Assembly (NCBI GenBank): GCA_038078835.1
Contig: JBBTQI010000003.1
Span: forward strand, 2,196 to 66,195
Direction: 5' to 3'
Length of the DNA: 64,000 nucleotides
Source of the DNA: Patescibacteria group bacterium
Lineage (GTDB): Bacteria > Patescibacteriota > UBA1384 > XYA2-FULL-43-10 > 1-14-0-10-43-13
Shown here: one piece after another, positions 5,279-56,952 of the stretch
Position numbering within the stretch: the first letter of the stretch is position 1
Layout of the letters: each line of letters begins with the position of its first letter
The notes under the pieces: generated by a model
Databases searched by the model: none
The model's input: the letters and a program-made list of their open reading frames with translations, nothing else
What the model was told of the DNA's origin: nothing
Translations under genes and position numbers: made by a program

Positions 5279-6208
5279 CTACTGCGGGAGGAAGCCCGAG
5301 GCAGAGCCGTAGCGGGCACCGTAGCCGCCGACCCCGTACGCGCCGAACCTGACCCTGCCGTCGCAGAAGAGGAAGAAGAACGGCGCGTAGCCGAAGCGGC
5401 CATCGGCTCCCAGAGCAAACTCGTCACCGGGGAGATCCTCGTGGAGCTGCTCCCTGCGAACGAACCGCTCGGGATGCGTCAACGCGATGGCGCCGCCAGC
5501 CAGGCTGCCGAGGCCGTACTCGTTGACCACGAAGGTCTCGCGGGCCCGGCACGTGGACTTGCCGCGGTGGCGCAGGCCGAGCTGGGCGGCGATGACCAGG
5601 ATATCGCCCCCCGTCTGTACCTCAATGATGCGCTCCATGGCTTGCGCCGTGCGAGCGTGCATCCGCAGGTAGCCGGGCGTGATCTGGCCGTCGCGGTAGT
5701 TGTAAAACGGACGCGAGGCCTTGATCTGCGCCAAGGTCAAGAGAATGGCCTGGCAATACTGCTCTGCCGGATCCTTGACCTTCGGGAAGTGCGCCCTGGC
5801 CAGGGCGCCGATCGACGGGATGGCAAACCACCCCTCGGCGCCTTCCGGAAGCTCGGGCAGACGTGCCGCGTAGTCGAGGGCTATCGCCGTGTCGAGGCAG
5901 GGGAAGATCTCGGCGATCATCCTGATCTGCTCGACGATCGGTTTCGGACCCTTGTACTCCGGCGGGTAGACGTAGTTCGACCTGACAACCTCACTGGCGT
6001 ACTTGTTACCCGAGCGATTTTCGGCGATGAAGGCGGTGATCAGGTCGACCAACCCAGGCGTGTTGTTGATACGCTGGGCTTCCTCTTCGGTAAGCCGCGC
6101 CTTGTTGTACGCGGCTTCGACGACCGAAACGAACTTGTGACCCTTCGGGTCTCGGGACGTGACAGACGGAGCCAATGTTGCCATCGGAGCCATCTCCTTT
6201 CGTTTCAT
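5279..6208 (-). CDS. Hypothetical protein on a ~65% GC island (probable horizontal acquisition)
   Basis: A 309-aa ORF whose GC content is visibly higher than the flanking ~50% GC DNA. It has no palindromic-repeat insertions and no recognisable motif. The true start may be an internal Met. Confidence 0.5.
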   Translation of the reverse strand: MKRKEMAPMATLAPSVTSRDPKGHKFVSVVEAAYNKARLTEEEAQRINNTPGLVDLITAFIAENRSGNKYASEVVRSNYVYPPEYKGPKPIVEQIRMIAEIFPCLDTAIALDYAARLPELPEGAEGWFAIPSIGALARAHFPKVKDPAEQYCQAILLTLAQIKASRPFYNYRDGQITPGYLRMHARTAQAMERIIEVQTGGDILVIAAQLGLRHRGKSTCRARETFVVNEYGLGSLAGGAIALTHPERFVRREQLHEDLPGDEFALGADGRFGYAPFFFLFCDGRVRFGAYGVGGYGARYGSASGFLPQ

Positions 6209-8754: not shown

Positions 8755-11052
8755 CTATTTGGGCCATTCGGCAATCATGATGGACTCGACCAAATCAGGA
8801 GAGATCTCTCTTAACTCCTGCCAAACTGCCTCCGTCACAAAGGGCATAAAGGGATGAAGCATTATAAGGGTTTCGGATAGAACTTTGACGAGAGCTTTTT
8901 TAGTGTTTTTCTTGATCTGCTCATCGCTATGTTTATCAAAATATATCTTTGTCTCCTCGATATATATATCGGCGAACGTGTGCCAAAAATAGTCGTAGAG
9001 TTTCTCCCCAGCTAAAGAGAATTTGAAATCACTTAGTAACCGTGTTGTCTCTTTCTTAAGAGATTCGTGTTCGTTAAGCATTCTTTGATTTTCCACGGTA
9101 TGCTTTCCGCCTTCGATGAAATCTAAATCAGATAGTTTGTCAGTGCCAATTACACCCGTCTTGAGGTCGCCTTCTGAAACCCGAAGGATAACGTAGCGCG
9201 AAGCATTCCAGATCTTGTTGGCAAAGTTGCGCATACCGCGAATCTTTTCTTCGGAGATAATAACGTCGTTGCCGGCAGCAACACCGAAAACCAAAGCCAT
9301 TCGAACGGCATCGGTACCGTATTGTTCTGCTACGCCAAGGGGATTGATAACATTGCCTTTGGACTTGCTCATCTTCTGCCGATCCTTATCCCGAACCAAA
9401 CCATGTAGAAACACATGTTTAAACGGCACCTTGTCGGTGACATAGAGTCCTAGCATAATCATTCTGGCGACCCAGAAAAAGAGGATGTCCCAACCGGTCT
9501 CCATGACAGAGGTTGGATAGAACTTTTCAAAATCACTAGGCTTTGTTGTCTGGAGAGCGGCAAAGGGCCACTGACCGGAGGAGAACCAGGTGTCAAAAAC
9601 ATCAGGATCAGACACAAGATCAGCACAACCACAATCTGGACATTTTTCTGGTTTTTCCCCTTCTGTCACTATTGGTTTTCCACTAATTTTACTTATCCTA
9701 CCTGGAATTGTTCCCTCTTTTACTGCGGCTCCGTAAGTAATATCTGTAGCGACCTCGTTGCTACAATTTTGACAATACCACGCCGGAATTCTGATTCCCC
9801 AAACAATTTGGCGGGAGATATTCCAATCCCGAATGTTCTCCATCCAGTGAGTAAAGATCTTCTCAAAACGTTTGGTGACAAACTTGACTCTGCCGTCTTT
9901 TACGACTTTTAGAGCATCTTTGGCTAATATCTTGCCTGATTTGCCGGGCTTATTGACGGCAATAAACCACTGTTCGCGTGGCAGCGGCTCGATAACACTT
10001 TGGCACTTATAACAAACACCCACAGAATGGAGGTAGTTCTCATTTCTTTTTTCAACCAACTCATCCAACTCCTCCGCCACAAGAGCGCGAGCCTCGGCAG
10101 TTCTCTTGCCTGATAACCTTTCTATAATCTGGGGTTTTGCTTTGGCTTGTTCCAGATTGGCAAGACGCCCTCTATCATCAATAACCGCCAAAATCTCAAG
10201 GCCATGGCGCTGGCCGATTTCAAAGTCGGTCGGATCATGGGCCGGAGTAACCTTAACCGCCCCGGTGCCGAATTTCATATCAACGGCTTCGTCGGCAATG
10301 ACCGGAATATCGCGGTCTGTTAAGGGCAACGGCACACTCTTGCCAATCAAATCTTTATACCCCTCATCGTTCGGATTAACGGCGATAGCCACATCGCCAA
10401 ACATTGTCTCCGGTCTGGTTGTCGCCACGGTAATCGGGCCATATTTGATATAGTACAATGGATCTTGTCGCTCTTCGTATTTTACTTCAAGATCCGAGAG
10501 TGAGGTCTGGTGTTTCGGGCACCAGTTGACCAGCCTAAAAGCCCGATAAGCCAGGCCGTCGTCATAGAGCTTTTTAAAGGTCTCGTAAACGATCTTAATA
10601 ATGTCGGGGTCGAGGGTAAATTTCTCTCTCTGCCAGTCGCAACTGGCGCCTAGCTTTTTGAGCTGGGCTTCCATTGCCTTCTTGTTTTCCTGAGTGAAAT
10701 CCCACATCATTTGGTAGAGTTCGTCTCTTGGAATTTGGAATCGGCTCTTGCCCTCCTTCTCCAGCTTCTTTTCAAAAACAACCTGGGTTTCAAAGCCGGC
10801 GTGATCGGCGCCCGGCAGCCACAGAGCGGCTTTTCCTTTAAGTCTGGCATACCGGATCATAATATCTTCAAGGGTAACGAAAACGGCATGGCCGATATGA
10901 AGCGAACCGTTGGCATTGGGCGGCGGCATGATAATACTGAATGGTTCGCCCCCTGGATTTACCTCCGGCTTAAAATAGCCCGCTTTCTCCCAGCGTTGGT
11001 ATAGATTCTCCTCAAATTTTTCCGGCTGCCACGCCTTGTCGATCGTTTTCAT
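8755..11052 (-). CDS. valS: Valyl-tRNA synthetase (class I aaRS)
   Basis: HIGH motif PPPNANGSLHIGHA, WLPGADHAGFETQ, and KMSKSKGN. The N-terminus MKTIDKAWQPEK matches the ValRS start (rc ATG at 11050-11052). Confidence 0.85.
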   Translation of the reverse strand: MKTIDKAWQPEKFEENLYQRWEKAGYFKPEVNPGGEPFSIIMPPPNANGSLHIGHAVFVTLEDIMIRYARLKGKAALWLPGADHAGFETQVVFEKKLEKEGKSRFQIPRDELYQMMWDFTQENKKAMEAQLKKLGASCDWQREKFTLDPDIIKIVYETFKKLYDDGLAYRAFRLVNWCPKHQTSLSDLEVKYEERQDPLYYIKYGPITVATTRPETMFGDVAIAVNPNDEGYKDLIGKSVPLPLTDRDIPVIADEAVDMKFGTGAVKVTPAHDPTDFEIGQRHGLEILAVIDDRGRLANLEQAKAKPQIIERLSGKRTAEARALVAEELDELVEKRNENYLHSVGVCYKCQSVIEPLPREQWFIAVNKPGKSGKILAKDALKVVKDGRVKFVTKRFEKIFTHWMENIRDWNISRQIVWGIRIPAWYCQNCSNEVATDITYGAAVKEGTIPGRISKISGKPIVTEGEKPEKCPDCGCADLVSDPDVFDTWFSSGQWPFAALQTTKPSDFEKFYPTSVMETGWDILFFWVARMIMLGLYVTDKVPFKHVFLHGLVRDKDRQKMSKSKGNVINPLGVAEQYGTDAVRMALVFGVAAGNDVIISEEKIRGMRNFANKIWNASRYVILRVSEGDLKTGVIGTDKLSDLDFIEGGKHTVENQRMLNEHESLKKETTRLLSDFKFSLAGEKLYDYFWHTFADIYIEETKIYFDKHSDEQIKKNTKKALVKVLSETLIMLHPFMPFVTEAVWQELREISPDLVESIMIAEWPK

Positions 11053-11087: not shown

Positions 11088-11540
11088 CTACCCTTCCAGC
11101 ATCTCGCTGATCTTGTCGCGGATCTCCTCCAATCGCTTCCTCTCGGCTAACAGTAATCGCTCATCAACCGAATAACCACGTAGTAACAAATTCTTCAGCG
11201 TCTTTGTTGCCCAGATCCGAAACAGAGTCGCTTTTTGGGAATTTACTCGATATCCGACAGACAAAATCGCGTCTAGATTGTAAAATTTAGTCTTATATTT
11301 CTTTCCGTCTTTGGCAGTACATTCCAAAATGGAATGAACTGATTTTTCTTCGAGTTCACTTGATTTAAAAACATTATGCAAGTGCTTTGCAATTGCTGGC
11401 TGATTTACGCCAAAAAGATCAGCCATTTGATTCTGGTTTAGCCAAAGAGTCTCATCCTTCAGGCGAGCCTCAATATAGACCTCACCCTTATAGACCTCAC
11501 CCTTCGGTGAAGTGTAAATGGCAATTTGATTCACTTCCAT
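11088..11540 (-). CDS. RhuM-family (virulence-associated DNA-binding) protein
   Basis: LWLNQNQMADLFGV...KYKTKFYNLDAILSVGYRVNSQKATLFRIWAT resembles the RhuM family consensus. Confidence 0.55.
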   Translation of the reverse strand: MEVNQIAIYTSPKGEVYKGEVYIEARLKDETLWLNQNQMADLFGVNQPAIAKHLHNVFKSSELEEKSVHSILECTAKDGKKYKTKFYNLDAILSVGYRVNSQKATLFRIWATKTLKNLLLRGYSVDERLLLAERKRLEEIRDKISEMLEG

Positions 11541-11549: not shown

Positions 11550-13013
11550 TTAGCCCAACTCCCAGTTGGCGTCTACTTTAATCTTGCCCCAAGAAGAAAC
11601 ATTGTTTCGCAGAACGTGATAGTAGGCCGCCAGACCAATCATCGCCGCATTATCGCCGGTTAAAGCTATTGGCGGTACCAGAAAATCTACTTTCGACTTT
11701 TCACTTTCAACTTTCAACTTGCTTCGAAGGTGTTTGTTTGCAGCAACGCCGCCGGCCAAAACAACGGTTTTGGGGGTAAATTGTTCAACCGCTCTCATTG
11801 TTTTAGTTACCAGCACATCAACAACTGCATCCTCAAAGGCAGTGGCAATCTCCGCTTTATCGATATCATCAAGACCCTCACCCCTACCCTCTCCCAAAGG
11901 GCGAGGGAGTTTTAAGGAAATCCGACGCTTAACTTCCAGAAGAACAGCTGTCTTTAAACCGGAGAAAGAAAAATTAAAAGTGCCATTGTTAATAATCGGC
12001 CGAGGAAGAACTAATTTGCTTAAGGCTGGAGGCTTAAGGCCGACCTTCGACAAACTCAGGTCGCCCTGAGTGGAAATTGAATGGGCGGAGGCCACATCCT
12101 TCCCGCCTTCAGCCTTCGGCCTTGGGCCTTGGGCTGATTCGCCTTTAGGATCATTTCTAAATTGCTCCGCCAATTTAGAAATGATCGGTCCCCCGGGATA
12201 ACCAAGACTAAGCAACTTGGCCACCTTGTCAAAAGCCTCTCCCGCCGCGTCATCCAGGGTCTGGCCGAGAGTCTCATACTGATCGTGACCCTTCATCAGA
12301 ACAAGCGAAGTATGCCCGCCAGAAACCACTAAAGCCAAAATTGGAAATTTTGGCTCGTCCAAGGCCAAAGGCCCAAGGTCTAAGGTCTTTTCGTCTCGGC
12401 CTTCGACCTTCGACCTTCGACCTTCGACATTTACTCCGCTTAAAGCGGAGTAAATATGTCCTTCGATATGGTTGACGGGAATAATCGGCTTATCCAGCAC
12501 GTAAGCGATCGATTTGGCGGCGTTAAATCCAATCAAAAGAGACCCGATCAACCCCGGTCCCGCCGTTACCGCGATGTGGGTAATCTCATTTTTTAGATAA
12601 TCCTGACTTTCCTGAAAATTACTACCCTCACCCCAACCCTCTCCCTGAAAGGGAGAGGGAGTATTAAAGGTTCCATCGCCCCGTTTCACGGGGAGAGGGT
12701 TAGGGTGAGGGGTTATAATAGATCCGTTTCCTTTATTTTGCATTTTGCATTTTGCATTTTGATTTTTAGCCTGTAAGAGTGCTTGTACGATTACAGGCGT
12801 TATCGCTTCCATATGCGCCCGGCTGGCCACCTCCGGCACTACCCCGCCCGTCTTGGCATGGAGATCGATTTGAGAGCTCACCACATTCGACAAAATGACA
12901 GGCCGAAAGCCTGTCATCCCGGACTTGATCCGGGATCCATCTTTTCCTACCCCAATAACCGCCGCAGCGGTCTCATCACAAGACGACTCGATGGCAAGAA
13001 TTAGAGGGGACAT
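11550..13013 (-). CDS. tsaD: tRNA N6-adenosine threonylcarbamoyltransferase TsaD (Kae1/YgjD), strongly expanded by in-frame repeat insertions
   Basis: LILAIESSCDETAAAVI, HIEGHIYSA, and GGVAANKHLR. Start at the internal Met MSPLILAIESS (rc ATG at 13011-13013). About 487 aa versus a typical ~340 aa. It contains family-1 repeats (11875-11910, 12625-12712), family-2 repeats (12085-12135, 12352-12430) and a (cattttg)n microsatellite at 12738-12762. Confidence 0.85.
   Translation of the reverse strand: MSPLILAIESSCDETAAAVIGVGKDGSRIKSGMTGFRPVILSNVVSSQIDLHAKTGGVVPEVASRAHMEAITPVIVQALLQAKNQNAKCKMQNKGNGSIITPHPNPLPVKRGDGTFNTPSPFQGEGWGEGSNFQESQDYLKNEITHIAVTAGPGLIGSLLIGFNAAKSIAYVLDKPIIPVNHIEGHIYSALSGVNVEGRRSKVEGRDEKTLDLGPLALDEPKFPILALVVSGGHTSLVLMKGHDQYETLGQTLDDAAGEAFDKVAKLLSLGYPGGPIISKLAEQFRNDPKGESAQGPRPKAEGGKDVASAHSISTQGDLSLSKVGLKPPALSKLVLPRPIINNGTFNFSFSGLKTAVLLEVKRRISLKLPRPLGEGRGEGLDDIDKAEIATAFEDAVVDVLVTKTMRAVEQFTPKTVVLAGGVAANKHLRSKLKVESEKSKVDFLVPPIALTGDNAAMIGLAAYYHVLRNNVSSWGKIKVDANWELG
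12625..12712. repeat. REP-like palindromic element, family 1, composite nested palindrome inside tsaD
   Basis: ccctcaccccaaccctctccc-tgaaa-gggagaggg ... ggggagagggttagggtgaggg. The outer arms at 12625-12645 and 12692-12712 are reverse complements. Confidence 0.65.
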
Positions 13014-13032: not shown

Positions 13033-13683
13033 TTAGGCACAGTTTTTCGCTTTCTTTGATTTTCTGGCCACCTTTTCCTGTTCTCGGTATCTTTGATAAT
13101 TACTGCCCCAGATATTTTTACCATAAGTTTGCTCAATAATTTGGTCTACCACCAGTTTTTGATAGCTAATTTGTCTATCTTGTGCATCCTGTCCGATTGC
13201 CTCATAAAGAAAATCGGGGGTGATTAATAAATCTGTTTTACCTCGAACGTAATGGAGATAGCTTGAGTATTTGTAATCTTCCGGCCTTTCTACTAATCTC
13301 GCCCTGACCGGATTAAGTTCAATATACTTTCCGCACTGGATAAAGTAGGCGTCCTTACCGACCGCCTGACTTTTATAGCGATCTTGCCAAAAGTGGCCAA
13401 TCCAATCATAGGACTGCCGATAGTGTTGGAAATAGGCCAAATTTAACTTTTTCATAAAAGTCGAAAAGTCGAGAGCTTTCTTGGTTTGAATTAAAAAGTG
13501 AGTGTGGGTAGGCATCAAGCAATAATGATAAAGGTCAAAAGGATGTTCTGATTTATACCTGCCAATAAGTTCTAAAAAATACAAATAATCATCATCTGAC
13601 CTGAAAACCTTATTCCGGTTGTTGCCCCGGGTCATTATATGATAAAAACTCTGAGATAAAAGAAATCGTCGTGTTCTTGGCAT
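13033..13683 (-). CDS. REP-associated tyrosine transposase (RAYT, IS200/IS605 TnpA-like HUH enzyme)
   Basis: HUH motif CLMPTHTHFLIQ, plus WQDRYKS and YIELNPVRARLV with the catalytic Tyr region, 216 aa. A 12-bp direct repeat (cattagagggga x2) at 13001-13024 lies just downstream. Confidence 0.7.
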   Translation of the reverse strand: MPRTRRFLLSQSFYHIMTRGNNRNKVFRSDDDYLYFLELIGRYKSEHPFDLYHYCLMPTHTHFLIQTKKALDFSTFMKKLNLAYFQHYRQSYDWIGHFWQDRYKSQAVGKDAYFIQCGKYIELNPVRARLVERPEDYKYSSYLHYVRGKTDLLITPDFLYEAIGQDAQDRQISYQKLVVDQIIEQTYGKNIWGSNYQRYREQEKVARKSKKAKNCA

Positions 13684-13789: not shown

Positions 13790-13820
13790 TGGAGCGGCCG
13801 ATCTTCGATCGGCCGCTCCA
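13790..13820 (-). terminator. Perfect GC-rich hairpin downstream of the GC-rich gene at 13857-14639
   Basis: ggagcggccgatc-ttc-gatcggccgctcc, a 13-bp stem, followed on the minus strand by an A/T-rich tract. Confidence 0.4.
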
Positions 13821-13856: not shown

Positions 13857-14639
13857 CTAGGAAGCAAGGACTCCCAGAGGGCGAACCGCCGCGCGGCGCC
13901 AGCGGCCGTCGGCAAAGTTGTAGCTGACGCGCACGAGGCCGCCGTAGTTCGAATCGCCACCGACGAGGCGGTTCGACGCGTCCCCGAAGAACTCCTCGTA
14001 CCAGACCCACGTATCGGTCTGGCCGTCGTTCGCACGGGGGCACATGGCGGGGTATGCCTGCGGGACGATGTTCGCCTCGATAATGGTCTCGAGGCGCATC
14101 CGCTGAGCCGGGAGGCCGAGCAGCTCGGCGACCACCGAACGGAGGTGGTTGTCCCACTCCACGGGCGAGACACCGAAGCGGCTCTCCTGAGGGCCGTACT
14201 CGTACTTGACGAGCTTGCCATCTGCCCGAAGGCGGGCGATCAGCTTGCCCAGGAAGTTGGCGTCGTTTGCGAACATCTGCCGCCCGCCGTCGTACGACGG
14301 CTTGCAACGCGTGTCCACCAGGGCAACGATGCCCTCGAGGCCAACTTCGGTCATCGAAGCCAGCTCGCCGCTGGCGTTGCGCCGCTTGATGTTGCCGGCG
14401 CCGATCTGTTCCCAGAACCAGAACTCCGGCTTCTTCTTCCAGCCCTTGAGGCTGGTCTTAGCGGTAAGCACGAGCTTGGGCAGGAAGTGCACCTCGAGAC
14501 CGAGGGCATTCCAGGCCTTCACGCGCTCTTGGCCTGTGGCCTCGAGCACCTGGCGCATCAGCGCCAGGTTTTGTGTCTGGCCGAAGAATGCCTGGTGGCA
14601 TTTCTCTTCGGCGGCAATGATCTTGCCAATCCAATCCAT
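13857..14639 (-). CDS. Hypothetical protein on a second ~65% GC island (probable horizontal acquisition)
   Basis: Start at the internal Met MDWIGK (rc ATG at 14637-14639). GC-rich versus its flanks and free of repeats. Its C-terminal half shows faint similarity to the 5279-6208 protein (TFVVNEYG versus TWVWYEEFFG; ERIIEV versus ETIIEA). Confidence 0.5.
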   Translation of the reverse strand: MDWIGKIIAAEEKCHQAFFGQTQNLALMRQVLEATGQERVKAWNALGLEVHFLPKLVLTAKTSLKGWKKKPEFWFWEQIGAGNIKRRNASGELASMTEVGLEGIVALVDTRCKPSYDGGRQMFANDANFLGKLIARLRADGKLVKYEYGPQESRFGVSPVEWDNHLRSVVAELLGLPAQRMRLETIIEANIVPQAYPAMCPRANDGQTDTWVWYEEFFGDASNRLVGGDSNYGGLVRVSYNFADGRWRRAAVRPLGVLAS

Positions 14640-17350: not shown

Positions 17351-17363
17351 CAACGAACATCCC

Positions 17364-18491
17364 TCACTTTAATCCTCTCCCTTTGAAGGGGAGAGGGGAG
17401 GGGGAGGGTTTGGCTTGTGAGCGTTTGCCGTGAAAAGCTTGGTGAACTTCGCGCAGATGCTGATCGGTAACATGGGTATAGACTTGAGTGGTGGTGATGG
17501 AAGAGTGGCCCAAAAGCGACTGGACGCTCCGAACATCGGCGCCGTTAATTAAGAGATCGGTGGCAAAGGAGTGGCGCAAGGTGTGCGGCGATACCTTTTT
17601 AGTGAGACCGGCTTTCCTGGCCGCTTTCTCGACAATACGCTGGACACTTCGAACCGCGAGACGCCCGCCCCGGGGGGAAGAGAAAAGGGGCTCATTATCA
17701 CTTAAGGCCGGAGACCTAAGGCCGGAGACCAAATTGCTATTACCTTCAGCCTTCAGCCTTAGACCTTGGGCTGATTTGCCTTCAGCCTTAGACCTTCGGC
17801 CTTGAGCTGATTCGCCTTGGGCCTTGGGCATGGGGCCTTCGGCATAATTCTTCAACCAATATTTTGCGCTCTCTGAAAGAAAAACGACCCGAAGCTTCTT
17901 GCCCTTACCCAACACGGCAATCTCACCTCGTTCGAGATTTATCTGGTCCCGGTCAAGGGCGACCAACTCCGAGACTCGCACCCCCGTTGAAAAAAGAACC
18001 TCCAGAATCGTCCGATCGCGCAAACCGGAAGTTTTAGCAACATCGACAGACTCTAAAACGCTTCTAAGCTCCTCCGTTTCCAGAAAACTGATCTCGCGAT
18101 CCCCCGTTTTAGCGATAACAACCTTCTCCGGCGGTAAAGTCATAATCCCCCGCCAAGAGAGATAGCGCAAAAAAGCCCTAAGGGCTAGGGCATGATAATT
18201 TTGTGTCGTCTTCTTAAGCTCTTGCCCCTTCTTGTCGCCCAATCGATTGATGTAAAGCCGGTAGTGCCGCACCGTCTCTTGGGTAATCATTTCTGGCATA
18301 AGGCCGGAGGCCACATCCTTTTCGCCTTCGACCTTAGGCCTTTGGCCTTCGGCAACATAATCCTTCAGCCACGTTAAAAAACGATTAAGGTAGCGGTCAT
18401 ATCCGGCAATCGTTAAAGTTGACTGGCCCTTGTCCAGCTCGCAATACTCCAAAAACTCGCGTTTTAATTGAAATAAATCATTCATTATCAT
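17364..18491 (-). CDS. xerD: Tyrosine recombinase XerC/XerD family, carrying in-frame repeat insertions
   Basis: HTLRHSFATDLLINGADVRSVQSLLGHSSITTTQVYTHV (R..HxxR..Y catalytic box). Two family-2 repeat insertions (17697-17835, 18298-18360). The C-terminal tail and stop codon lie inside a family-1 palindrome (17361-17410). Confidence 0.85.
   Translation of the reverse strand: MIMNDLFQLKREFLEYCELDKGQSTLTIAGYDRYLNRFLTWLKDYVAEGQRPKVEGEKDVASGLMPEMITQETVRHYRLYINRLGDKKGQELKKTTQNYHALALRAFLRYLSWRGIMTLPPEKVVIAKTGDREISFLETEELRSVLESVDVAKTSGLRDRTILEVLFSTGVRVSELVALDRDQINLERGEIAVLGKGKKLRVVFLSESAKYWLKNYAEGPMPKAQGESAQGRRSKAEGKSAQGLRLKAEGNSNLVSGLRSPALSDNEPLFSSPRGGRLAVRSVQRIVEKAARKAGLTKKVSPHTLRHSFATDLLINGADVRSVQSLLGHSSITTTQVYTHVTDQHLREVHQAFHGKRSQAKPSPSPLPFKGRGLK
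17697..17835. repeat. GC-rich palindromic element, family 2 (AGGCCGAAGGC / GCCTTCGGCCT theme), inside xerD
   Basis: aaggccggagacctaaggccggagacc...ccttcagccttcagccttagaccttgg...ccttcggccttgagctgattcgccttgggccttgggc. The translated segment KAQGESAQGRRSKAEGKSAQGLRLKAEGNSNLVSGLRSPALSDN recurs in uppP and tsaD. Confidence 0.6.
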
Positions 18492-19261: not shown

Positions 19262-20170
19262 ATGATAACTATGCAAGAATTCTTTCAGTCTCTGGTAATC
19301 GGCGCCATCCAGGGCATCACCGAATTTCTGCCGATCTCCTCGTCGGGGCACCTGGTCTTGGTCCCTTATCTTTTTGGTTGGGACTATCAGGGTCTCTCAT
19401 TTGATGTCGCCCTTCATTTTGGCACCGCCCTTGCTGTTATTGCCTACTTCCGGCGGGACTGGATAAAGATCATCGCTAAAGGCCTAAGGCTGAAGGCTGA
19501 AGGCAATAGCAATTTGGCCTCCGGCCTTAGGCCTCCGGCCTTAGGCTTTTCCGCTTCCAGCCCTAGGCCTCCGGCCTTAGGCAAAAATTTGCTGTGGCAA
19601 ATTTTAATCGCTTCCATTCCGGCGGCGATTGCCGGCATCTTGATCAACGACTATGTTGAATCAACTCTCCACTCTCCTCTCTTGCTCGCCGCTAACCTGA
19701 TTATCTTTGGCTGGCTTCTCTGGTATGCCGACAAACGAGCTGCCTTCGGCCTTTGGCCTTCGGCCTTCGCCCATTCGATTTCCACTCAGGGCGATCTGAG
19801 TCTATCGAAGATCGGCCTTCGGCACGCCTTGTTTATTGGTCTGGCTCAATCTCTTGCCCTGGTCCCCGGCGTCTCCCGCTCCGGCATCACCATCACCGCC
19901 GCTCGCAGCCTCGGCCTGAATCGGGAAGCGGCAACCCGCTTCTCCTTTCTCCTCGGTACTCCGGCGATTGTCGGCGCCTTTCTCTATAAATTCAAGGATA
20001 TCGATATTGCCCTAATTAACCTTCCCTTTATTGTTGCCACACTGGCGGCAATGGTCTTTGGTTTTCTTGCGATCAAGTATTTGCTACAATATTTAAGAAA
20101 GAGCGATTTCTCCGTTTTTTTGTGGTATCGAGTCGCACTAGCCATAATCGTGCTCTTCGGAGGGAAATGA
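19262..20170 (+). CDS. uppP: Undecaprenyl-diphosphatase UppP/BacA, carrying in-frame repeat insertions
   Basis: N-terminus LVIGAIQGITEFLPISSSGHL, and a C-terminal GVSRSGITITAA motif. Family-2 repeat insertions at 19478-19582 and 19742-19772 encode LRLKAEGNSNLASGLRPPALG and FAHSISTQGDLSLSKIGL. Both peptides also occur in xerD and tsaD. Confidence 0.85.
   Translation: MITMQEFFQSLVIGAIQGITEFLPISSSGHLVLVPYLFGWDYQGLSFDVALHFGTALAVIAYFRRDWIKIIAKGLRLKAEGNSNLASGLRPPALGFSASSPRPPALGKNLLWQILIASIPAAIAGILINDYVESTLHSPLLLAANLIIFGWLLWYADKRAAFGLWPSAFAHSISTQGDLSLSKIGLRHALFIGLAQSLALVPGVSRSGITITAARSLGLNREAATRFSFLLGTPAIVGAFLYKFKDIDIALINLPFIVATLAAMVFGFLAIKYLLQYLRKSDFSVFLWYRVALAIIVLFGGK
19478..19582. repeat. GC-rich palindromic element, family 2, inside uppP
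   Basis: aggcctaaggctgaaggctgaaggc...ggcctccggccttaggcctccggccttaggc. Confidence 0.6.
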
Positions 20171-30130: not shown

Positions 30131-31189
30131 ATGTCCCAATTTTCAACTCAACAATCAATCGACATTGCCGGGATTAAGGAGGGTGTCGTCATCCTCAAGA
30201 ATGGCGGCTACCGCCTGATCTTTTCGGTGGCGGCAATTAACTTTGCCCTAAAGAGCGAGCAGGAACAGAACTCGATTATTTTCCAGTACCAAAGCTTTTT
30301 AAACTCCCTTCACTTCCCCATTCAGATCGTGATGAGATCCAAGCGTTTAGACCTCGACCCGTATTTGCAAAAAGTCTCCAAGCTGGCCGGAGATCAGCAA
30401 AACGAGTTATTGCGAATTCAAACTGAGGATTACGTCGACTTTGTCGGCAAACTCATCAATATCGCCAACATTATGAAAAAGACCTTCTACGCCGTCATCC
30501 CCTACCAGCCCCTCTCTCTCCAAAACACGGGCGCTCTGGGCAAACTGTTCCGGCGAGAAAAAACGGTGACAGAGCTTAAGATCTCTGAAACGGAGTTCAA
30601 TCATAATATCCAGGAGCTTAAACAGCGCGCCGGCGTTGTCGCCAGCGGCCTGGGCTCGATGGGCCTGCGCTGTGTTCAGCTCTCAACCGAGGAGGTCATT
30701 GAGCTCTTTTATCAAGTCTACAACCCCGAAGAAGCCGGAACGGAGAGAGTCAGCGATGCCGAGAGCCTGACCTCGCCCGTTGTCATTCACAAAAGCGAAG
30801 CGCCCGAAGAAGCCGGAGGTCAAAGGCCGGAAGGTGAAGGCGATAATACGGCCGAGAGCCTAAGGCCGAAGGCCGAAGGGGGTCAAGCTGAAGGCGAAAG
30901 GCCGGAGGCTGAAAGCCAAAGAGAAGAGGTAATTGACAATTCGGCCTCGGTACTGGCGCAACAAAAAGAACAAGCTATGCTCCACCGCCAGGAGATGATG
31001 AAGGAGGGAGAGCGCAATATAGCCCAAGGCCAAAGGCCGGAGGCTGAAGACGACAACACCCCCAATCCGCCACCGGCAACGCCCGAACCAATAACTCAAA
31101 CGCCGAATCAAACCACTACTCAAACAAATCAGCCCGACAACTCGAACCCCGAGGAACAGGATGAAACCCAACAGCACAAGCCCCAATAA
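30131..31189 (+). CDS. VirB4/TraC-family ATPase, N-terminal fragment (split gene) with a low-complexity repeat-derived tail
   Basis: DIAGIKEGVVILKNGGYRLIFSVAAINFALKSEQEQNSIIFQYQSFLNSLHFPIQIVMRS matches the VirB4 N-terminus of Gram-positive conjugation systems. The C-terminal ~130 aa (EAPEEAGGQRPEGEGDNTAESLRPKAEGGQAEGERPEAE...) are encoded by family-2 repeats at 30812-30918 and 31021-31048. Confidence 0.55.
   Translation: MSQFSTQQSIDIAGIKEGVVILKNGGYRLIFSVAAINFALKSEQEQNSIIFQYQSFLNSLHFPIQIVMRSKRLDLDPYLQKVSKLAGDQQNELLRIQTEDYVDFVGKLINIANIMKKTFYAVIPYQPLSLQNTGALGKLFRREKTVTELKISETEFNHNIQELKQRAGVVASGLGSMGLRCVQLSTEEVIELFYQVYNPEEAGTERVSDAESLTSPVVIHKSEAPEEAGGQRPEGEGDNTAESLRPKAEGGQAEGERPEAESQREEVIDNSASVLAQQKEQAMLHRQEMMKEGERNIAQGQRPEAEDDNTPNPPPATPEPITQTPNQTTTQTNQPDNSNPEEQDETQQHKPQ
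30812..30918. repeat. GC-rich palindromic element, family 2, inside the virB4 N-terminal fragment
   Basis: ggaggtcaaaggccggaaggtgaaggc...gcctaaggccgaaggccgaaggg...gaaaggccggaggctgaaagcc. Confidence 0.55.
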
Positions 31190-31592
31190 AGGCTCCCTCC
31201 AATCCCCTCTCCTCCGAGAGGAGAGGGTGAGGGTGAGGAGAAAATTAAGAGTTAACTCAACTCCAGCTGAACAGATAATCTGGCACAAAATAAGATCAAG
31301 ACAATTAAACAACCTGAAGTTTCGGCGGCAACATCACTTTGGAAAATATATCGCCGATTTCTATTGCCCAGAGAAGAAATTGGTAATCGAGATCGATGGT
31401 GATGTTCATGATTTAGAATGTCAGAGAGAGCACGATAAAAAAAGAGGCCATTATTTAACGAGCTTAGGTTTGCGTGTCTTACACATTACCAATGATGAAG
31501 TGAGAAATAATCTTACAGGAGTACTAGAAAGCATCTTGCTGCAACCCCATCCCTCACCCCAACCCTCTCCCTTAAAAAGGGGGAGGGAGTAA
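31161..31592 (+). CDS. DUF559-family endonuclease-domain protein (Vsr/restriction-endonuclease-like fold) inserted between the two virB4 halves
   Basis: RKLRVNSTPAEQIIWHKIRSRQLNNLKFRRQHHFGKYIADFYCPEKKLVIEIDGDVHD...LGLRVLHITNDEV matches the DUF559 consensus. It is flanked by family-1 palindromes at 31194-31228 and 31551-31592. A likely alternative GTG start lies near 31231. Confidence 0.65.
   Translation: MKPNSTSPNKGSLQSPLLREERVRVRRKLRVNSTPAEQIIWHKIRSRQLNNLKFRRQHHFGKYIADFYCPEKKLVIEIDGDVHDLECQREHDKKRGHYLTSLGLRVLHITNDEVRNNLTGVLESILLQPHPSPQPSPLKRGRE
31194..31228. repeat. REP-like palindromic element, family 1, left flank of the DUF559 cassette
   Basis: tcccctctcctccgagaggagagggtgagggtgagg. Confidence 0.6.
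31551..31592. repeat. REP-like palindromic element, family 1, right flank of the DUF559 cassette
   Basis: tccctcaccccaaccctctcccttaaaaagggggagggag; encodes the DUF559 C-terminal tail HPSPQPSPLKRGRE. Confidence 0.6.
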
Positions 31593-34749: not shown

Positions 34750-36018
34750 ATGAAAAATGATATTTATCAATATCTGAACGCGCGGATATATTTGGCGCTC
34801 TTTGTGATGGTCTCGGCTCTCTTTGGCCTCTACTGGTTTGCGACTCACTCCTACCTCACCATCAAGGTCACGCCGCCGGACGCTATGGTCACGATCAATA
34901 ACGCGCCGGTCTCGCTCTCCGCCGCCGGCAAAATAAAACGGGCTCTCGCGCCGGGCGCCTACTCGCTTCGGATTGAGGCTGACGGCTACGTCGGCTATAT
35001 CGAGGAGGTTGCCCTCAAACGAACTCAGCGCAAAACCGTCTCGGCCAGCCTCACGGAGGCGCCAAAGGTCCAGACTCTGGCGGAATCAGCGAAATTCCTC
35101 TCCGCCGGGCCGGACTTTAACACCATCCACTATCTGGGCGATGATGGCAGAACGCTCTACCGCGCCAAGACAACACTGGAAAACGGCGAGGTCAAACTCA
35201 AAGAGCACCTCCCGATAACCGAGCCGCGGTTCTCCGGCCTTGAGGAGATTGTCTGGTCGCCCGGCAAGGAGCTGGCTCTCCTGCGCAAGAGCGAGGGCAT
35301 CTATCTCTTCGATTTTAAAAAATACGATTTTATCAATCAAACCGAGACATTGTGGGCCAAGAGCGCCGGCAGTCTTGCCTGGTCGCCGGACAACTCCAAA
35401 ATCGCCTATTATTACGCCGACGACAAGGAGAAATCATTAATCTTTACTAATATTGCCAACACCGAACCGGTACGGGTGGCTAATCTGGCCGAGATGAATA
35501 TCGTCAATCCGATTCTGCGCTGGTCGCCGGACTCCGAATGGCTCCTTGTCATACCTCGTAATACTTTTTCATACGATTTAAGCAAAGTTTATGCCTTTAA
35601 CGCCTACAGTCGCTCCTTTATCGAACTGACGGAAACGGGCAGCCAGCTTGACGCCAGCTTCTCGCCGGACGGCAACAGAATCATCTACGGCACGTATTCG
35701 GAGCTCTCCAGCAATCCCGTCACTTCTCTAATATCGATTATGGATAAAGACGGCGCAAACAAACGCTCGCTTAATTTACGCGCCGATATCAGCCGGATGG
35801 CCTGGAAAAAAGACAGTAAAACCTTAGTCGCGGCGACTTATAATCCCTCAAGTCACAAAGAGTCGCTCTTTGGCTTTGACACCGAGAAGAAGCAGAAGAT
35901 TGATTTCTCCGTTAATGCTCTTGATTCGGGTTACATCCGCACTCTGGCCATTTCTGACGACGAAAAGATCATCATTTTTGAGTCGGGGAACGGGATATAC
36001 GGCATCGCAATAGAGTAA
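34750..36018 (+). CDS. Membrane-anchored PEGA-domain plus TolB-like beta-propeller protein
   Basis: TM helix, a PEGA-like LTIKVTPPDAMVTINNAPV...GAYSLRIEADGYV, then repeated WSPD / FSPDG motifs (WSPDNSKIAYY, RWSPDSEWLLV, FSPDGNRIIYG). Confidence 0.5.
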   Translation: MKNDIYQYLNARIYLALFVMVSALFGLYWFATHSYLTIKVTPPDAMVTINNAPVSLSAAGKIKRALAPGAYSLRIEADGYVGYIEEVALKRTQRKTVSASLTEAPKVQTLAESAKFLSAGPDFNTIHYLGDDGRTLYRAKTTLENGEVKLKEHLPITEPRFSGLEEIVWSPGKELALLRKSEGIYLFDFKKYDFINQTETLWAKSAGSLAWSPDNSKIAYYYADDKEKSLIFTNIANTEPVRVANLAEMNIVNPILRWSPDSEWLLVIPRNTFSYDLSKVYAFNAYSRSFIELTETGSQLDASFSPDGNRIIYGTYSELSSNPVTSLISIMDKDGANKRSLNLRADISRMAWKKDSKTLVAATYNPSSHKESLFGFDTEKKQKIDFSVNALDSGYIRTLAISDDEKIIIFESGNGIYGIAIE

Positions 36019-36245
36019 ATCTCAAACAACAAGCACCAAATATCAAATAATTTCCAAATCACAAACCTCAAATAACAAATAAATTCCAGATTGCAATTAC
36101 CAGCTACAAAAGCGTTTGAAAATTAGAGATTGGGACTTGGAACTTATCTAAGATTTGTTATTTGGGATTTAAATTTTACTTGTGGTTTGGTGCTTGGTAT
36201 TTGAGGTTTCTCCGCTTTGGCGGAGAGGAGGGGTTTTGGCAACCG
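36019..36245. repeat. ~220 bp AT-rich MITE-like inverted-repeat element, copy 1
   Basis: ...caagcaccaaatatcaaataatttccaaatcacaaacctcaa...ttacttgtggtttggtgcttggtatttgaggtttctccgctttggcggagaggagg. The arms are imperfect reverse complements. It ends in a small hairpin plus GGAGAGGAGG. Confidence 0.5.
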
Positions 36246-37672
36246 GTCGGCAAAATCGGGAGGAGTACGAGGCCTTAAGGCGCAACCTTAAGGCGGCAAT
36301 CGGGCGGCGGAGTCCGACCGTTTATAGCATTGCCCAAAAGATGAACTCCTTGGGCGTCTCCGACCCCGAGCTGGGACCGATCATTGAAGCCCTCGCTTCC
36401 CGCCAATTCAGCGCTATGGCCGAAGCCCAGCGCCATTTTGGCGTGAAAACACCATCAAACCGCCCTGATTCGGCCAGACCATCGGAATCGCCAGGGAGCG
36501 GAACTGAAACCGGCACTCCCTTTGAAAATGCCGGCGAGGGCATCAAGGCCAAGAAACCGAGTGATATCGGCCGGATCGGACAGGTCGCTAAAAATATCAG
36601 AGACCTGCAAAAGCGAGCTCAAAACTACCTTCGCGCCCTCAAGGCGGCCGGCATTTTGGCCAATCCCTGGACATGGGTGGTGATCGGCATTGCGATTTTA
36701 ATTATCCTAATTATTCTCTTTGTCGTCATTCTCTCGATTGTTTTGAACAAAAACCAGATGACGCCCCATCCCGGCGGCAAATCCCAAGCCCAGGCCGCCG
36801 ACCCCATCGCCGACCGCGAATTTGTCCGGAAATTACTGGCTCTAACCGGAGACCAAGATATTAAAAACGAGGCGATCGCCGGCAACAATAAAAAACTGCT
36901 AACCCAAATCGACGACCTCATTACCGAGATCAGAAAGCCGGAAAACGCCGACCTTCCCGATCGCGACCAAATTAAAAAGGACTATCTCGCCATCAGGGAT
37001 ATCGCTCAAAATATCAGCCCCAGCAATTCCAATAATGCCGCTCTCTACGACCAGGTTATCGCCAAGCTTAAAGAAACAAGAAAATATCTCTCCGCTCCCC
37101 TCGCCGCCTACCCCGGCCCTTCGACCTTGCCGCTAAATTTGCCTCGGGATCAAATTAGAACCGGGAATAGCCTTCACCATTGCACCCGCTGGCGGCCAGA
37201 TCACTGTTTTAAAGGCTCTGGTCACGGCACCTTTGTAATGAACAGTAGCAAGCGCTCCGATGCCGTTGATCTCTCACCCACTACAAAACCTGTCCACGAT
37301 GTCAAAATCATCGCCGTTTTCGACGGCACTATTAAAGATAAAGAGCATGGCGGTGTAGACACCAAGAAAGAGTATTTTTATCTCACCGATACAACTGGCC
37401 AATATAAGGCGGTTTATGCCCACGTTAAGCTCAATGATGGTACAAAAAATGTTAAGAAGGGCGATGAAATCGGCTATATTCTCGACAGTATCGGCCATCT
37501 TCACTTTGAGCTTTACCAAATTACAAAGATCGGTTTGAGGCCATTAAATTATACCGAGGAAGATATTAAAGCTTGCGGCCTGGATAAAAATCCGCTCACT
37601 CCCAACTGCCCCAACGGCCGCCGCATCGGTGATTATTATTGGGATTACCTTACTTTGATTTTGCAGAAATGA
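36182..37672 (+). CDS. M23-family (LytM-like) metallopeptidase with an N-terminal TM helix; start uncertain
   Basis: C-terminal HCTRWRPDHCF...GDEIGYILDSIGHLHFELYQ (M23 HxxxD / HLH motifs). TM helix WTWVVIGIAILIILIILFVV. The listed ATG lies inside the MITE-like element; the real start is probably downstream (for example Met ~36344). Confidence 0.65.
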   Translation: MVWCLVFEVSPLWRRGGVLATGRQNREEYEALRRNLKAAIGRRSPTVYSIAQKMNSLGVSDPELGPIIEALASRQFSAMAEAQRHFGVKTPSNRPDSARPSESPGSGTETGTPFENAGEGIKAKKPSDIGRIGQVAKNIRDLQKRAQNYLRALKAAGILANPWTWVVIGIAILIILIILFVVILSIVLNKNQMTPHPGGKSQAQAADPIADREFVRKLLALTGDQDIKNEAIAGNNKKLLTQIDDLITEIRKPENADLPDRDQIKKDYLAIRDIAQNISPSNSNNAALYDQVIAKLKETRKYLSAPLAAYPGPSTLPLNLPRDQIRTGNSLHHCTRWRPDHCFKGSGHGTFVMNSSKRSDAVDLSPTTKPVHDVKIIAVFDGTIKDKEHGGVDTKKEYFYLTDTTGQYKAVYAHVKLNDGTKNVKKGDEIGYILDSIGHLHFELYQITKIGLRPLNYTEEDIKACGLDKNPLTPNCPNGRRIGDYYWDYLTLILQK

Positions 37673-40600
37673 AAGCGGTTTTCCAAAAATCTATCTGTAT
37701 TCTTCTGGTAATCGGGTCGCTTTTAATTCAAGTGGCGCCGATTCTGTCGTTTCCAACAAAAGTTAGAGCCCAAGAAGACATCGCCAATGAAACAACCAAT
37801 CTTAATGTGGAAACGGTCGGACCAGATGGTGAAATCTATGGTGATGTCCCGCCAGAAGTTAAGGCGTACGAAGAAACTAACTCCATCTATGATCAGATGG
37901 AGAAGCTTTACGACTTTGCCGAGGAAGCCAATTTCCGCGACGATGATCCCACCCGCCTCTCGCCAAGCGATCTCTTTGGCACGAGCGATGCAAGGATAAT
38001 TCTGCGGCAGTCGGATTATCTCAAGGTCAAAGCCCTTTACTGCATCTCGGAGTCGGTCGGGGGGTATCCCGACTACGAGAATGATCTGGCGCTTTTAGCT
38101 AAGGATTCGGGGCGAGACGAGGGCAAGCTCACCGAACTCAAAAACAGCCTGGCTGTGGCTGATCGGGTCGAGTTCAGACGAATTATGCGGGGCACCCTGG
38201 TCAAGTGGGGTGAGAGTTACGATATTAAAGCGAAACTCAAGGATGAGGCAAATCTCCGGACACTTGAGTGCATCACCGGCCTCTCCGGCAACGCGCTGGC
38301 CGAGCTTCGCGCCAGCCAAAAGGAGAAACTGGATCCGATTATCGACGATGCCGTGGAGGGATTGAAGATCGACATTAGAATTATAAAGACCCTCGTTTAT
38401 CTTGTCACACCAAAAGAGAAGGGTGGAGCGGGGCATTATCGTATTCGAGTCCACCGCATCTTTCAGATCAAAGAGCTCTCGACCGAATCCGATGCCATCC
38501 TCGGCCGCAACTTAAAACAGCAAAAGGACGGCACGGCCGCCGATATCGGCCAGGCCGAACGGGAAGGCGCCGATGCCACAATTGAGGATGCCTCCGGCAA
38601 CGCTGTCGCCGATGCCTATCTCGAAGAGATAACGCAAGAAGAGGACAAGGTTGAGGCCAACCGCTCCGCCCACGCCGACGGCCAGGCGGTTGATATTTCC
38701 GAGATTGACGACATTCGCTGCACCGTTGTCGGCCGGCGACGAGTAGGACAAGACAAAGTCGAGAACAAACCGGCCCAGCCCGTCCGACTGTCTTGGCAAA
38801 CCAATGATGGCTACAGCGCCTCCGGCGGCAACAACGCCTATGATCTTATGGAGCTGATGCGGGAAAGCGCCAAGGAAAGCCTGCGCGAGCTGGCCAATGG
38901 TCTCGGCGGCGACATCACCGATTACGAGGGCGACCTCTCCAGGGCCAACCTCGAGGACTTAACCACCCTGATCGGCAAATCGCTCTTTGCCGAGATCATT
39001 AACTCTCCCGGCGCTTTTCTTTCGGGCTACGATGTCGGCGACACGATGGAGAAGCTGGGGTCGATGTATCTGGCCGATTACCTCGGTCTCCCGCGCGAAG
39101 TCTTTGCCGGGCGCGGCATCGAGAGCTTTGACGACATCTCCGTCCTGGTCGGCGAGGCTTCGATTGAAAAGAAGCTGAATCAGCCGATCGGCCTGCTCGA
39201 GCCGATTATGGAGCCCTCGCCTGGAAATAGTCTCTCCGATCTTGAATTTTGGCTGCGCCAGATCGGCCGGCGCAAGATCGCTCTGGAGATGAATTTAAAC
39301 CTAAACGACCTCGTCGATTACTCCGGTGATAAGCCGATATCTCTTCTGGTGGGTCAAAAGGCGATCGAGAAGGGTATTGATCTTCCCCCCGGCTCCTTCA
39401 ATTATCACAGCGCCAGCTTTAACGAGCTCAAAAGTCATATCGGCACGATTAAGGTCCAAGTCATTCAAACCGACCCCGCCTGGGTCGATCGGACGCTTCA
39501 CATTCCTCTCGGTTCAACCAAGAAATTATTGGACAACAAGGATAGCGAGGAGGCTCTGGCCGAATTCATCGCTTTGGTCGGAACCACCCGGATTGAAGAC
39601 ACGGTCAGAGGATTTAAATACCTTGCCGCTCACAGCAGTGCGTACAACCTGCCGGATGACGACTGGGAGAGAGCGGTCAACGGCGACCCTGACGGCCTAA
39701 CTCAGATCGGCATCTTTATGGCCGCCCGCGCTTTTGCCGAGGATAATGACGACTACCAGCGTCTGGCCATCCAGCAATGGATTAATGATGCGGTGAGCGG
39801 CTCTGATAACGGCGCTTGCGTCAATAATCCTTACATTAAAAAGAACGTTGAGATTGCCAAAGCCGAACCCCAGTTGGTTCTGACCGAGAGCGGACAATTT
39901 AAGGAGATCACCATCTCCGAGGACAGCGCCCGCAAGGCCGGTCTGGCCGAGGGCGATCTCTGCCAGATGTTCGGACAGAAGGCCGCCGCCGCCTATGATA
40001 TCTTTGAGCGCATCGGCGAGCGCTATCTCTACTATGCTTTTGTCAACGCTGTCGCCAACGAAGAGAGAGTCAAGGTCGATTTGATGCAGGATCCCGCTTA
40101 CCATATCACCAACACCGAAGTTCTCTTCTACACCACCCGGGTTGAAAAAGCTCAGACGCTCTCCAAGAAGATCAAAAAAGATTGGGAAACGCTCAAGAAA
40201 GACGAGCGCCTAAAAGATGATCCCGAACTGATGAGCGCGCTTGACGAGATCATCGCCGCCTCGGCTGATATCTCCTCCACCCAAACCAATATATCCGGCA
40301 TCAGAGATAAGTCGCGGCAGCTAACCGCCAAGAGCAGCCGGATCAGCGCCCGGCTTCGGCAAAAGAGAGCCGAACTCTCCGATCTCTCCGACCACATTAA
40401 CGCGCTGGTTCGGGACACCCGGGAGCTCTATCGAACAGTGATGGAGTTAATCGAGGGCCAGCCGATTCCGGCCGCCTCGCTCCTGGAGGCCAACCAGATT
40501 AAAACGACCGATTTAAGCCGGCGCGAGAACGGCCGCAACAATAGTAATGTCAAAGTTACGACCGCGCCGACGCTGGTCGCCGCTTTTCTCAAGGGCCGGA

Positions 40601-52872: not shown

Positions 52873-52914
52873 TAATCCCATACGTCTCATAGGACATATA
52901 AGTCGTATAGGATT

Positions 52915-54564: not shown

Positions 54565-54790
54565 ACCAAAAAATCCCAAATTACAAGCACCAAATAACAA
54601 ATAATTTCCAAATCACAAACCTCAAGTAATAAATAAATTCCAGATTTCAATTACTAACTACAAAAGCGTTGAAATTGAAATTAGAGATTGGAACTTGGAG
54701 CTTATCTGAGATTTGTTGTTTGATATTTGTAATTTACTTGTGGTTTGGTGCTTGTTGTTTGAATTTTCTCCGCCAAGGGCGGAGAGGAGG
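54565..54790. repeat. ~220 bp AT-rich MITE-like inverted-repeat element, copy 2
   Basis: Close to colinear with copy 1 (...acaagcaccaaataacaaataatttccaaatcacaaacctcaag...tacttgtggtttggtgcttgttgtttgaattttctccgccaagggcggagaggaggg). Its terminal GGAGAGGAGG acts as the SD for the ATG at 54795. Confidence 0.5.
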
Positions 54791-54794
54791 GATT

Positions 54795-55619: not shown

Positions 55620-55629
55620 TGCTTACATA

Positions 55630-55673
55630 ATCCACCTGGAAGGTGAATGCGCCCAAACACCTTCCAGGTGGAT
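55630..55673. terminator. Conserved hairpin CCACCTGGAAGGTG-N12-CACCTTCCAGGTGG, copy 1 (terminator-like)
   Basis: atccacctggaaggtg aatgcgcccaaa caccttccaggtggat, directly after the stop of the 54795-55619 gene. Confidence 0.5.
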
Positions 55674-55738
55674 TACTCGCTCGAACTATAACAAAAACCG
55701 CTTCGATCGCGAGCGGTTTTTGCTGTTATCACTAAGAT

Positions 55739-56056: not shown

Positions 56057-56189
56057 CTCTCCTCCTTTTATTAGGTCTAAATGAAAAATATTGTGCCTGC
56101 GATCGACCCTCGCTCTATGCACACCGCAGGACATGCTTAATAGCTAACTTGCTTTCTAAATCCTACCACACCCCTCAAATCTTTTGCAA

Positions 56190-56513: not shown

Positions 56514-56538
56514 TTATCCTCCATGATAACTCACCGCC

Positions 56539-56586
56539 AACCCACCTGGAAGGTGTTTGGCCACACTCACCTTCCAGGTGGGTTGG
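56539..56586. terminator. Conserved hairpin CCACCTGGAAGGTG-N12-CACCTTCCAGGTGG, copy 2
   Basis: aacccacctggaaggtg tttggccacact caccttccaggtgggtt, between pilin-like genes 2 and 3 (downstream of the stop of gene 3 on the minus strand). Confidence 0.5.
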
Positions 56587-56590
56587 AATA

Positions 56591-56932: not shown

Positions 56933-56952
56933 TTAGAAAAATTTTACTCCCC

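Follow-up and report, generated by a model that had tools for sequence, protein, structure and literature searches.

Here we report that two GC-rich genes in a 64,000-nt stretch of DNA from a Patescibacteria group bacterium (contig JBBTQI010000003.1 of assembly GCA_038078835.1; the whole stretch is hereafter called the window) are very probably target, or variable-protein, genes of diversity-generating retroelements (DGRs), of a type common in Patescibacteria, a reading to which we assign a probability of roughly 0.85–0.9. The window is part of a 70.6-kb contig from a groundwater Patescibacteria metagenome-assembled genome (MAG; Hainich H43), and both genes, named A and B here, lie on its minus strand. 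In known DGRs, a template repeat (TR) is transcribed, wrong bases are inserted at its adenines during reverse transcription, and the resulting cDNA replaces the last 40–45 codons of the target gene, the variable region (VR), thereby rewriting a ligand-binding surface. The identification of A and B would rest on their membership in two unrelated families of such targets, together with adenine-specific VR divergence in both window copies. An earlier note on this DNA had described the two genes as candidates for acquisition from a high-GC donor; that reading is largely replaced by one of orphan DGR targets, an identity that its author had missed, and a speculative story of inter-phylum transfer gives way to something concrete, namely two DGR targets without a retroelement on their contig in a groundwater patescibacterium. 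The features on which the argument depends are as follows.

5279..6184, minus strand: gene A, probable DGR variable protein of family A, 301 aa (MEK9155802.1, AAB360_00670)
5281..5414, minus strand: VR_A, putative variable region of gene A, about 134 nt, ending at the gene A stop codon
5204..5219, minus strand: weak hairpin of gene A (ACCGCC-GCAA-GGCGGT), 6-bp stem and GCAA loop, 60 nt past the gene A stop
13857..14639, minus strand: gene B, probable DGR variable protein of family B, 260 aa (MEK9155810.1, AAB360_00710)
13870..13990, minus strand: VR_B, putative variable region of gene B, about 120 nt
13790..13820, no strand assigned: GC-rich inverted repeat beginning 37 nt past the gene B stop, with a perfect stem of 14 bp, a loop of 3 nt, and a T-run after it

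The open reading frames (ORFs) were first given as 5279–6208 for A and 13857–14639 for B. The latter agrees with the NCBI gene call, while the start of A lies 24 nt inside its ORF, at 6184 rather than 6208 (MATLAPS...), a position backed by both public gene calls and homologue alignment. In another assembly of the contig (70,635 nt; P0166), gene A is called as a protein of only 119 aa starting at MERIIEVQ, either because the sequence may differ there or through a possible gene-calling artefact further upstream; because of this call, the exact A protein is unlisted in our homology search.

A and B are members of two unrelated DGR target families

Homology searches of the kind that the earlier note had proposed placed both proteins in families found in Patescibacteria, with no match to Pfam, NCBIfam, or PHROGs for either protein and no sequence-level match to PDB sequences for protein B. 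Family A is large, with 1367 matches in a word-indexed search and 1912 clusters at 50% identity, and its closest homologue of A (66% identity) is followed downstream by bAvd and RVT_1 genes. Family B is smaller (44 matches, the best at 57% identity). In the alignments of both families, the last ~45 residues are hypervariable among otherwise near-identical proteins, over an invariant scaffold, a pattern that suggested DGRs.

Relatives with complete cassettes bear the DGR signature in full. Among 65 family A genome loci fetched, 53 were tested for a copy of the gene 3′ end, and 21 of these have a clear copy of ~130 nt, usually ~400 nt downstream and 80–90% identical; TR adenines account for 371 of the 387 mismatches in the 20 TR–VR pairs that align without gaps. 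For family B, a TR is found ~330 nt downstream in 25 of 51 metagenome loci, and 393 of 448 mismatches are at TR adenines. Relatives of both families thus share a TR lying 330–430 nt downstream of the target as well as the order target gene, TR, then Avd and reverse transcriptase (RT), with the Avd recognized by the NCBIfam model DivGenRetAVD (84.7 bits, cutoff 80) and the RT carrying an IGNLTSQ motif. The RTs adjoining A-type and B-type genes are related to each other, with 42–65% amino acid identity to the RT of one reference locus (L019). Two pairs of B-type cassettes with flanks 99–100% identical differ only within the VR (all 10 differences between L071 and L074, and all 15 between L076 and L083), almost always at codon positions 1 and 2; by these sequence comparisons, B-type DGRs that have a cassette are active in nature.

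The window copies show the same bias towards adenines. Set against a consensus built from 20 family TRs, VR_A departs from it at 21 of 29 consensus-A sites (72%) and at only 11 of 83 non-A sites (13%). For VR_B and a consensus built from 17 family TRs, the counts are 16 of 28 consensus-A sites (57%) and 10 of 70 non-A sites (14%). The frequency of adenine at third codon positions (A3) is ~0.02 in the bin that holds VR_A. The 3′ end of VR_A, CCGCAGTAG, has the VR-type ending CAG, where every family A TR has AAG. In every one of the family A TR–VR pairs (L004–L059) the last difference is fixed, with ...CCGAAGT in the TR and ...CCGCAGT in the VR, directly before the stop, and this constant K-to-Q difference probably marks the initiation of mutagenic homing (IMH) sequence as distinct from IMH*; the window copy of A carries the VR form of the site.

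Downstream of the two genes, we compared the sequence with the elements expected of a DGR target, a conserved 3′ segment and a GC-rich hairpin: B has the 14-bp hairpin, and A has a VR-type ending and a 6-bp hairpin. Hairpins occur in 29 of 53 family A relatives at a survey threshold of 7 bp, many of them 46–96 nt past the stop, and stems of 9–15 bp stand at the place of the weak hairpin of A, which with its 6 bp lies under that threshold. Family B relatives carry hairpins of unrelated sequence 30–49 nt past the stop. The inverted repeat at 13790–13820, at the family-typical position, is by analogy a candidate DGR target-recognition hairpin or cruciform. It was originally described as a terminator; the perfect hairpin and T-run are indeed present, and it may also serve as a terminator, although its site is that of a DGR recognition hairpin.

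For protein B, an AF2 model (pLDDT 96.3) predicts a C-type-lectin fold of the formylglycine-generating enzyme (FGE) type. The Foldseek top 50 in PDB consist of FGE/EgtB/SenA/PvdO/ToxD-type chains, the DGR protein TvpA (2y3c), and one PorKN chain, and these matches are weak (best E = 1.5e-3, TM 0.35–0.43, 10–14% identity). By inspection, without a predictor, neither A nor B has an obvious N-terminal signal sequence.

The earlier note had also raised the possibility that A and B are distant paralogues with faintly similar C-terminal halves. Pairwise BLASTP (E = 1.7) and profile–profile alignment with hhalign (probability 0.6%) do not support paralogy, and the Foldseek results of the two proteins differ too. 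The C-terminal similarity has no statistical support, yet it pointed to the right place, as both C-termini are the putative DGR variable regions.

High GC content is a trait of the target ORFs

That the two genes form GC-rich single-gene islands was borne out. ORF A has a GC content of 0.640 (0.62, 0.46, and 0.835 at codon positions 1, 2, and 3, or GC1, GC2, and GC3) and ORF B of 0.641 (GC3 0.847), i.e. ~64% GC with GC3 values of 0.84 and 0.85, in a window of 0.499 GC overall. All other window ORFs of at least 100 aa range in GC3 from 0.42 to 0.76, and measured against 20 native genes (mean 0.554, sd 0.079) A and B are both outliers at z = 3.7, with codon usage that is much alike in the two (relative synonymous codon usage, r = 0.80). 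The GC1/GC2/GC3 periodicity of both islands indicates genuine coding sequence, and the step in GC falls at the ORF ends, sharply at the stop codon and with no 5′-to-3′ gradient. The sole further 800-nt interval with GC of at least 0.60 lies at 43.6–44.7 kb inside a giant ORF, which is moderately enriched in GC along its whole length and so is not an island. A structured RNA as the source of the islands was ruled out, as an Rfam search of both islands matched no family and codon periodicity is clear. A genuine antisense overlapping gene was likewise rejected: by our reasoning, the long antisense ORFs are an expected by-product of low A3, because the stops of that frame correspond to sense TTA, CTA, and TCA codons.

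The same excess is seen across both families. The A gene is richer in GC than its flanks at 57 of 58 loci (mean +0.155, in hosts of 29–55% GC), as is the B gene at 46 of 51. Relative to the median of neighbouring genes, the GC3 of the target is higher by 0.25 in family A (46 of 47 loci) and by 0.13 in family B (21 of 25), with corresponding values of −0.01 and −0.07 for the RT beside the target. Only the target ORF and the TR are GC-rich in intact cassettes, while spacer, Avd, and RT are host-like; in family A cassettes, GC is 0.55 in the gene body, 0.62 in the VR, 0.52 in the TR, 0.40 in the spacer, 0.35–0.37 in Avd and RT, and 0.39–0.41 in the flanks. Patescibacterial DGR targets reach GC3 values of 0.6–0.86 in hosts of 30–50% GC without any excess in the adjoining Avd and RT. 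We infer that the 64% GC of A and B is inherent in these lineages of target genes and is confined to the ORF, so that here an atypical composition marks a class of gene and not a donor, a reminder that compositional islands can mislead.

As to the cause, whole-gene adenine depletion by off-target DGR mutagenesis was rejected, since A and T are about equally depleted outside the VR and no 5′-to-3′ gradient is present. The candidates would be GC-biased gene conversion at a recombination hot spot, synonymous-site selection, or an unsampled GC-rich reservoir. That the targets are recombination hot spots under GC-biased gene conversion, or are subject to synonymous-site selection tied to retrohoming, is possible rather than probable; if true, either process would account for both the high target GC3 and the swapping of gene bodies described below, orphan DGR targets would be recognizable by composition alone, and the mobile unit would be the target and not the retroelement.

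Exchange of family A target bodies uncoupled from the RT

Between genomes, family A gene bodies resemble one another far more closely than do the sequences around them, with 87–97% nucleotide identity where flanks and RTs are only 58–75% identical or defy alignment. They are swapped between divergent lineages and between cassettes whose RTs are unrelated. In one syntenic pair (L025 and L030), the flanks are 62–86% identical, Avd and RT 60–73%, and the VR 77–84%, with an A body identity of 96–99%; A-body identity is 0.971 and RT identity 0.674 in this pair, as compared to 0.911 and 0.578 for L005 and L007. In a third pair (L016 and L030; A body 0.888, RT 0.892), the entire cassette stands in a different context. 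Loci from hosts as different in composition as L029 (GC 0.357) and L040 (0.507) have flanks that cannot be aligned and A genes with 88.7% nucleotide identity (synonymous divergence, dS = 0.107). Within a group of four loci (L021, L025, L026, and L030), the dS of A stays at 0.10–0.15 throughout while flank identity varies from 73% to 88%, which argues for recent allele replacement and not for uniform synonymous constraint. The A body is under purifying selection (median dN/dS 0.20). These sequence comparisons support horizontal exchange of the family A target among Patescibacteria, uncoupled from the RT and with its GC-rich composition moving along; in family A, then, the GC trait would travel with a gene body that is swapped without regard to the RT.

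For gene B, the one syntenic relative found for its site (L131) is distant, with a ValRS ~65% identical, and reads BacA-PAP2-integrase-MurE-FemAB-[108 aa]-TsaD-ValRS. Gene B is missing there between FemAB and TsaD, as are the Y1 transposase and the RhuM gene that lie near it in the window. No syntenic relative for the gene A site was found among the loci compared. The idea that A and B arrived by transfer therefore holds in part: horizontal mobility is supported by the exchange of family A bodies and the absence of B from the syntenic relative, but a high-GC donor is not. Nor is the lack of palindromic insertions in A and B, which is real, informative as a sign of recent arrival: with ~8–9 copies of the palindromic repeats in the first 22 kb of the window, we estimate that ~0.7 would be expected in the 1.7 kb of the two genes, and the probability of finding none is near 0.5.

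The target-restricted GC excess and the RT-independent exchange of A bodies matter for the evolution and spread of DGR targets in ultra-small symbiotic bacteria, and are relevant to finding orphan targets that RT-centred surveys overlook. No published description of either was found, in a literature to which access was incomplete.

Alternative origins and the state of the two targets

Recent acquisition of A and B from a high-GC donor such as the host of an episymbiont, with their composition as yet unameliorated, is in our judgment highly unlikely. Such a history would sit well with two strong compositional outliers of similar codon usage, with the absence of B from its syntenic relative, and with a demonstrably mobile family A, and a 470-kb contig labelled as Acidobacteriota does contain an A homologue at native GC (L048, 44% identity); it lies at 9986–10918 between ruvA and other core genes, in a 60% GC contig without a DGR, and is the only observation by which a GC-rich reservoir stays conceivable. 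Homologues are nearly all patescibacterial, however, and the closest ones to A and B are no nearer than the ValRS of this organism is to its nearest relative (65%). The GC excess recurs throughout both families whatever the host GC, and with host-like RT and Avd genes the co-transferred unit is not uniformly GC-rich. The other exception to patescibacterial matches, a B homologue labelled as Thermoleophilia (L137, 8001–8831, 45% identity), occupies a mobile island of 42–50% GC within a 62% GC genome; the island also carries Replic_Relax, ParE/Phd, and HTH genes. IMG/VR yielded only 4 loci for A, all having Avd and RT, and 0 for B, and carriage by phages was rejected on these counts and on the lack of a PHROG match. 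Even less credible is a model in which A and B are native genes, their high GC3 being due to codon selection for strong expression and unconnected to mobility or DGRs. Codon periodicity typical of true coding sequence and an effect confined by the ORF would both agree with it, but ribosomal-protein, EF-G, and HU genes beside A homologues have ordinary GC3 (0.56 for S12, 0.51 for S7, and 0.52 for EF-G against 0.72 for the A homologue of L125; 0.34 for HU against 0.77 in L124), and the trait is common to two unrelated families whose only known common feature is their status as DGR targets. Expression-linked codon bias was rejected on these grounds.

If A and B are DGR targets, as we favour, the question becomes whether they are still diversified. 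In the window and both contig ends, i.e. the 70.6-kb contig, a sensitive blastn search (word size 7) found no TR-like repeat and tblastn found no RT or Avd, which leaves A and B as orphan or remote targets, and the absence of RT and Avd is compatible with either state. This is not an unusual situation, as no cassette adjoins 20 of 38 well-flanked family A loci and 6 of 19 family B loci, about half. Identical proteins recur in at least 5 contigs for A and 10 for B, from several assemblies, and the 90% clusters of A and B hold 1–2 sequences with no VR variants, which slightly favours frozen VRs over diversification in trans; we therefore lean slightly towards A and B being stranded with a frozen VR. 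Not far short of even, in our view, are the chances that one or both are active remote targets, with a TR-Avd-RT cassette elsewhere in the same genome rewriting VR_A and/or VR_B in trans. Remote DGR targets are known (PMC8144416), each ORF is intact, with its VR scaffold conserved and its 3′ end of the VR type, and B retains its perfect hairpin at the family-typical position. On the other hand, A and B have no VR sequence in common, meaning that two different TRs would be required, the hairpin of A is just 6 bp, and VR variants are lacking across the recurring contigs. Nor do two A paralogues of one MAG (L011 and L057) have a VR in common, so that concerted VRs, which might have served as evidence for trans-action, were not seen.

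Several observations weigh against the account given here. With no cognate TR or RT on the contig, DGR action on A and B is deduced from family membership and the VR signature. For family A, neither PDB nor BFVD offers a recognizable fold, and confidence in the modelled VR is low, making a C-type-lectin fold for A a candidate only. The GC excess is larger where a cassette adjoins the target, in family A (0.174 vs 0.130, p = 0.03) and in family B (0.130 vs 0.052, p = 0.0009), in a comparison that is uncorrected for phylogeny and includes some near-duplicate loci. Finally, the GC3 excess of A and B is missing from the targets of all 4 phage and viral DGRs used as controls, and the excess as a general DGR trait was rejected for this reason.

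Comparison with known DGR systems

DGRs and domain-less targets are already known from bacteria of the candidate phyla radiation (CPR; PMC8144416; PMC5758913), and A and B are new, unnamed members of target families found in an orphan state. The cellular CPR DGRs of “DGR clade 2” (Roux et al. 2021) resemble those described here in their patescibacterial, often groundwater hosts, in a cassette of target, TR, Avd, and RT, and in adenine-specific mutagenesis. Their targets lack transmembrane segments or recognizable domains (PMC8144416), and families A and B agree with them in having domain-less targets; the window differs in that only target genes are present on this contig. Remote or orphan DGR targets have been reported in DGR surveys (PMC5758913, PMC8144416), and like these A and B have a VR without an adjoining RT, though here the cognate DGR is unseen and trans-action is a possibility.

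Treponema denticola TvpA (PDB 2y3c) shares with the predicted structure of B an FGE-sulfatase-type C-type-lectin superfold and a C-terminal VR, with the difference that the match is weak, without Pfam or PDB sequence support, and that B has no obvious signal sequence by inspection. The mtd-avd-TR-brt system of Bordetella phage BPP-1 is similar in having a 3′ VR, a TR that differs at adenines, Avd and RT genes, a conserved 3′ segment that distinguishes VR from TR, and a GC-rich hairpin, which in BPP-1 is located downstream of the VR and is needed for efficient retrohoming (PMC3240598). Unlike the phage-borne BPP-1 system, families A and B are chromosomal and cellular; their hairpins lie 30–96 nt past the stop, as compared to 4–34 bp for phage DGR hairpins, and the loops are not always GRNA.

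Neighbourhood and other features of the window

Many family A genes are located at contig ends or are split over two contigs of one MAG, as in Wolfebacteria GW2011_GWA1_44_24 (contig-end or split loci: L036, L050, L058, L060/L062, and L063–L065). Assemblies may tend to break in the family A gene, perhaps because its VR is heterogeneous or because it occurs in more than one copy.

Beside gene B, an AT-rich patch at 13033–13635 (minus strand) encodes an IS200-like Y1 transposase (Pfam Y1_Tnp, E = 6e-19), which may be REP-associated. A RhuM/Bro-N-type gene (11088–11540, minus strand) lies between valS and tsaD, whose products are encoded adjacently in L131, where the gene is absent. In L005 the valS–tsaD interval carries a complete A-type DGR cassette. 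A neighbourhood common to other loci (isc, mnmA, valS, tsaD, femAB, murE) was considered and rejected, as by a rough estimate these matches are no commoner than chance would give in genomes of ~1 Mb.

Several families of GC-rich palindromic repeats are found inside housekeeping ORFs, including tsaD, an integrase, and bacA, and some of them appear to be read through in frame, e.g. as PHPNPLP...GEG peptides. Their positions are listed here.

12036–12148: palindromic repeat
12356–12429: palindromic repeat
12622–12661: palindromic repeat
17358–17397: palindromic repeat
17703–17821: palindromic repeat
18295–18367: palindromic repeat
19479–19560: palindromic repeat
19762–19819: palindromic repeat
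31188–31227: palindromic repeat
31548–31587: palindromic repeat

Two intervals of the window (21473–46000 and 52900–63900) contain pilus genes and genes resembling those of type IV secretion systems (T4SS), among them a TrbL-like gene, a TraG-type P-loop ATPase, a T2SSE ATPase, and at least 5 T4SS_pilin genes. The giant ORF mentioned above (37639–45960) encodes 2773 aa with internal repeats of ~1.6 kb and no Pfam match, and its GC3 is 0.54–0.74 throughout. Long AT-rich intergenic modules made up of 32-nt periodic units and inverted copies occur three times (36017–36215, 54571–54773, and 63819–63934), and a 40-nt palindrome with a perfect stem (CCACCTGGAAGGTG...CACCTTCCAGGTGG) is likewise found three times beside pilin genes, at 55632–55671, 56542–56581, and 60521–60560.

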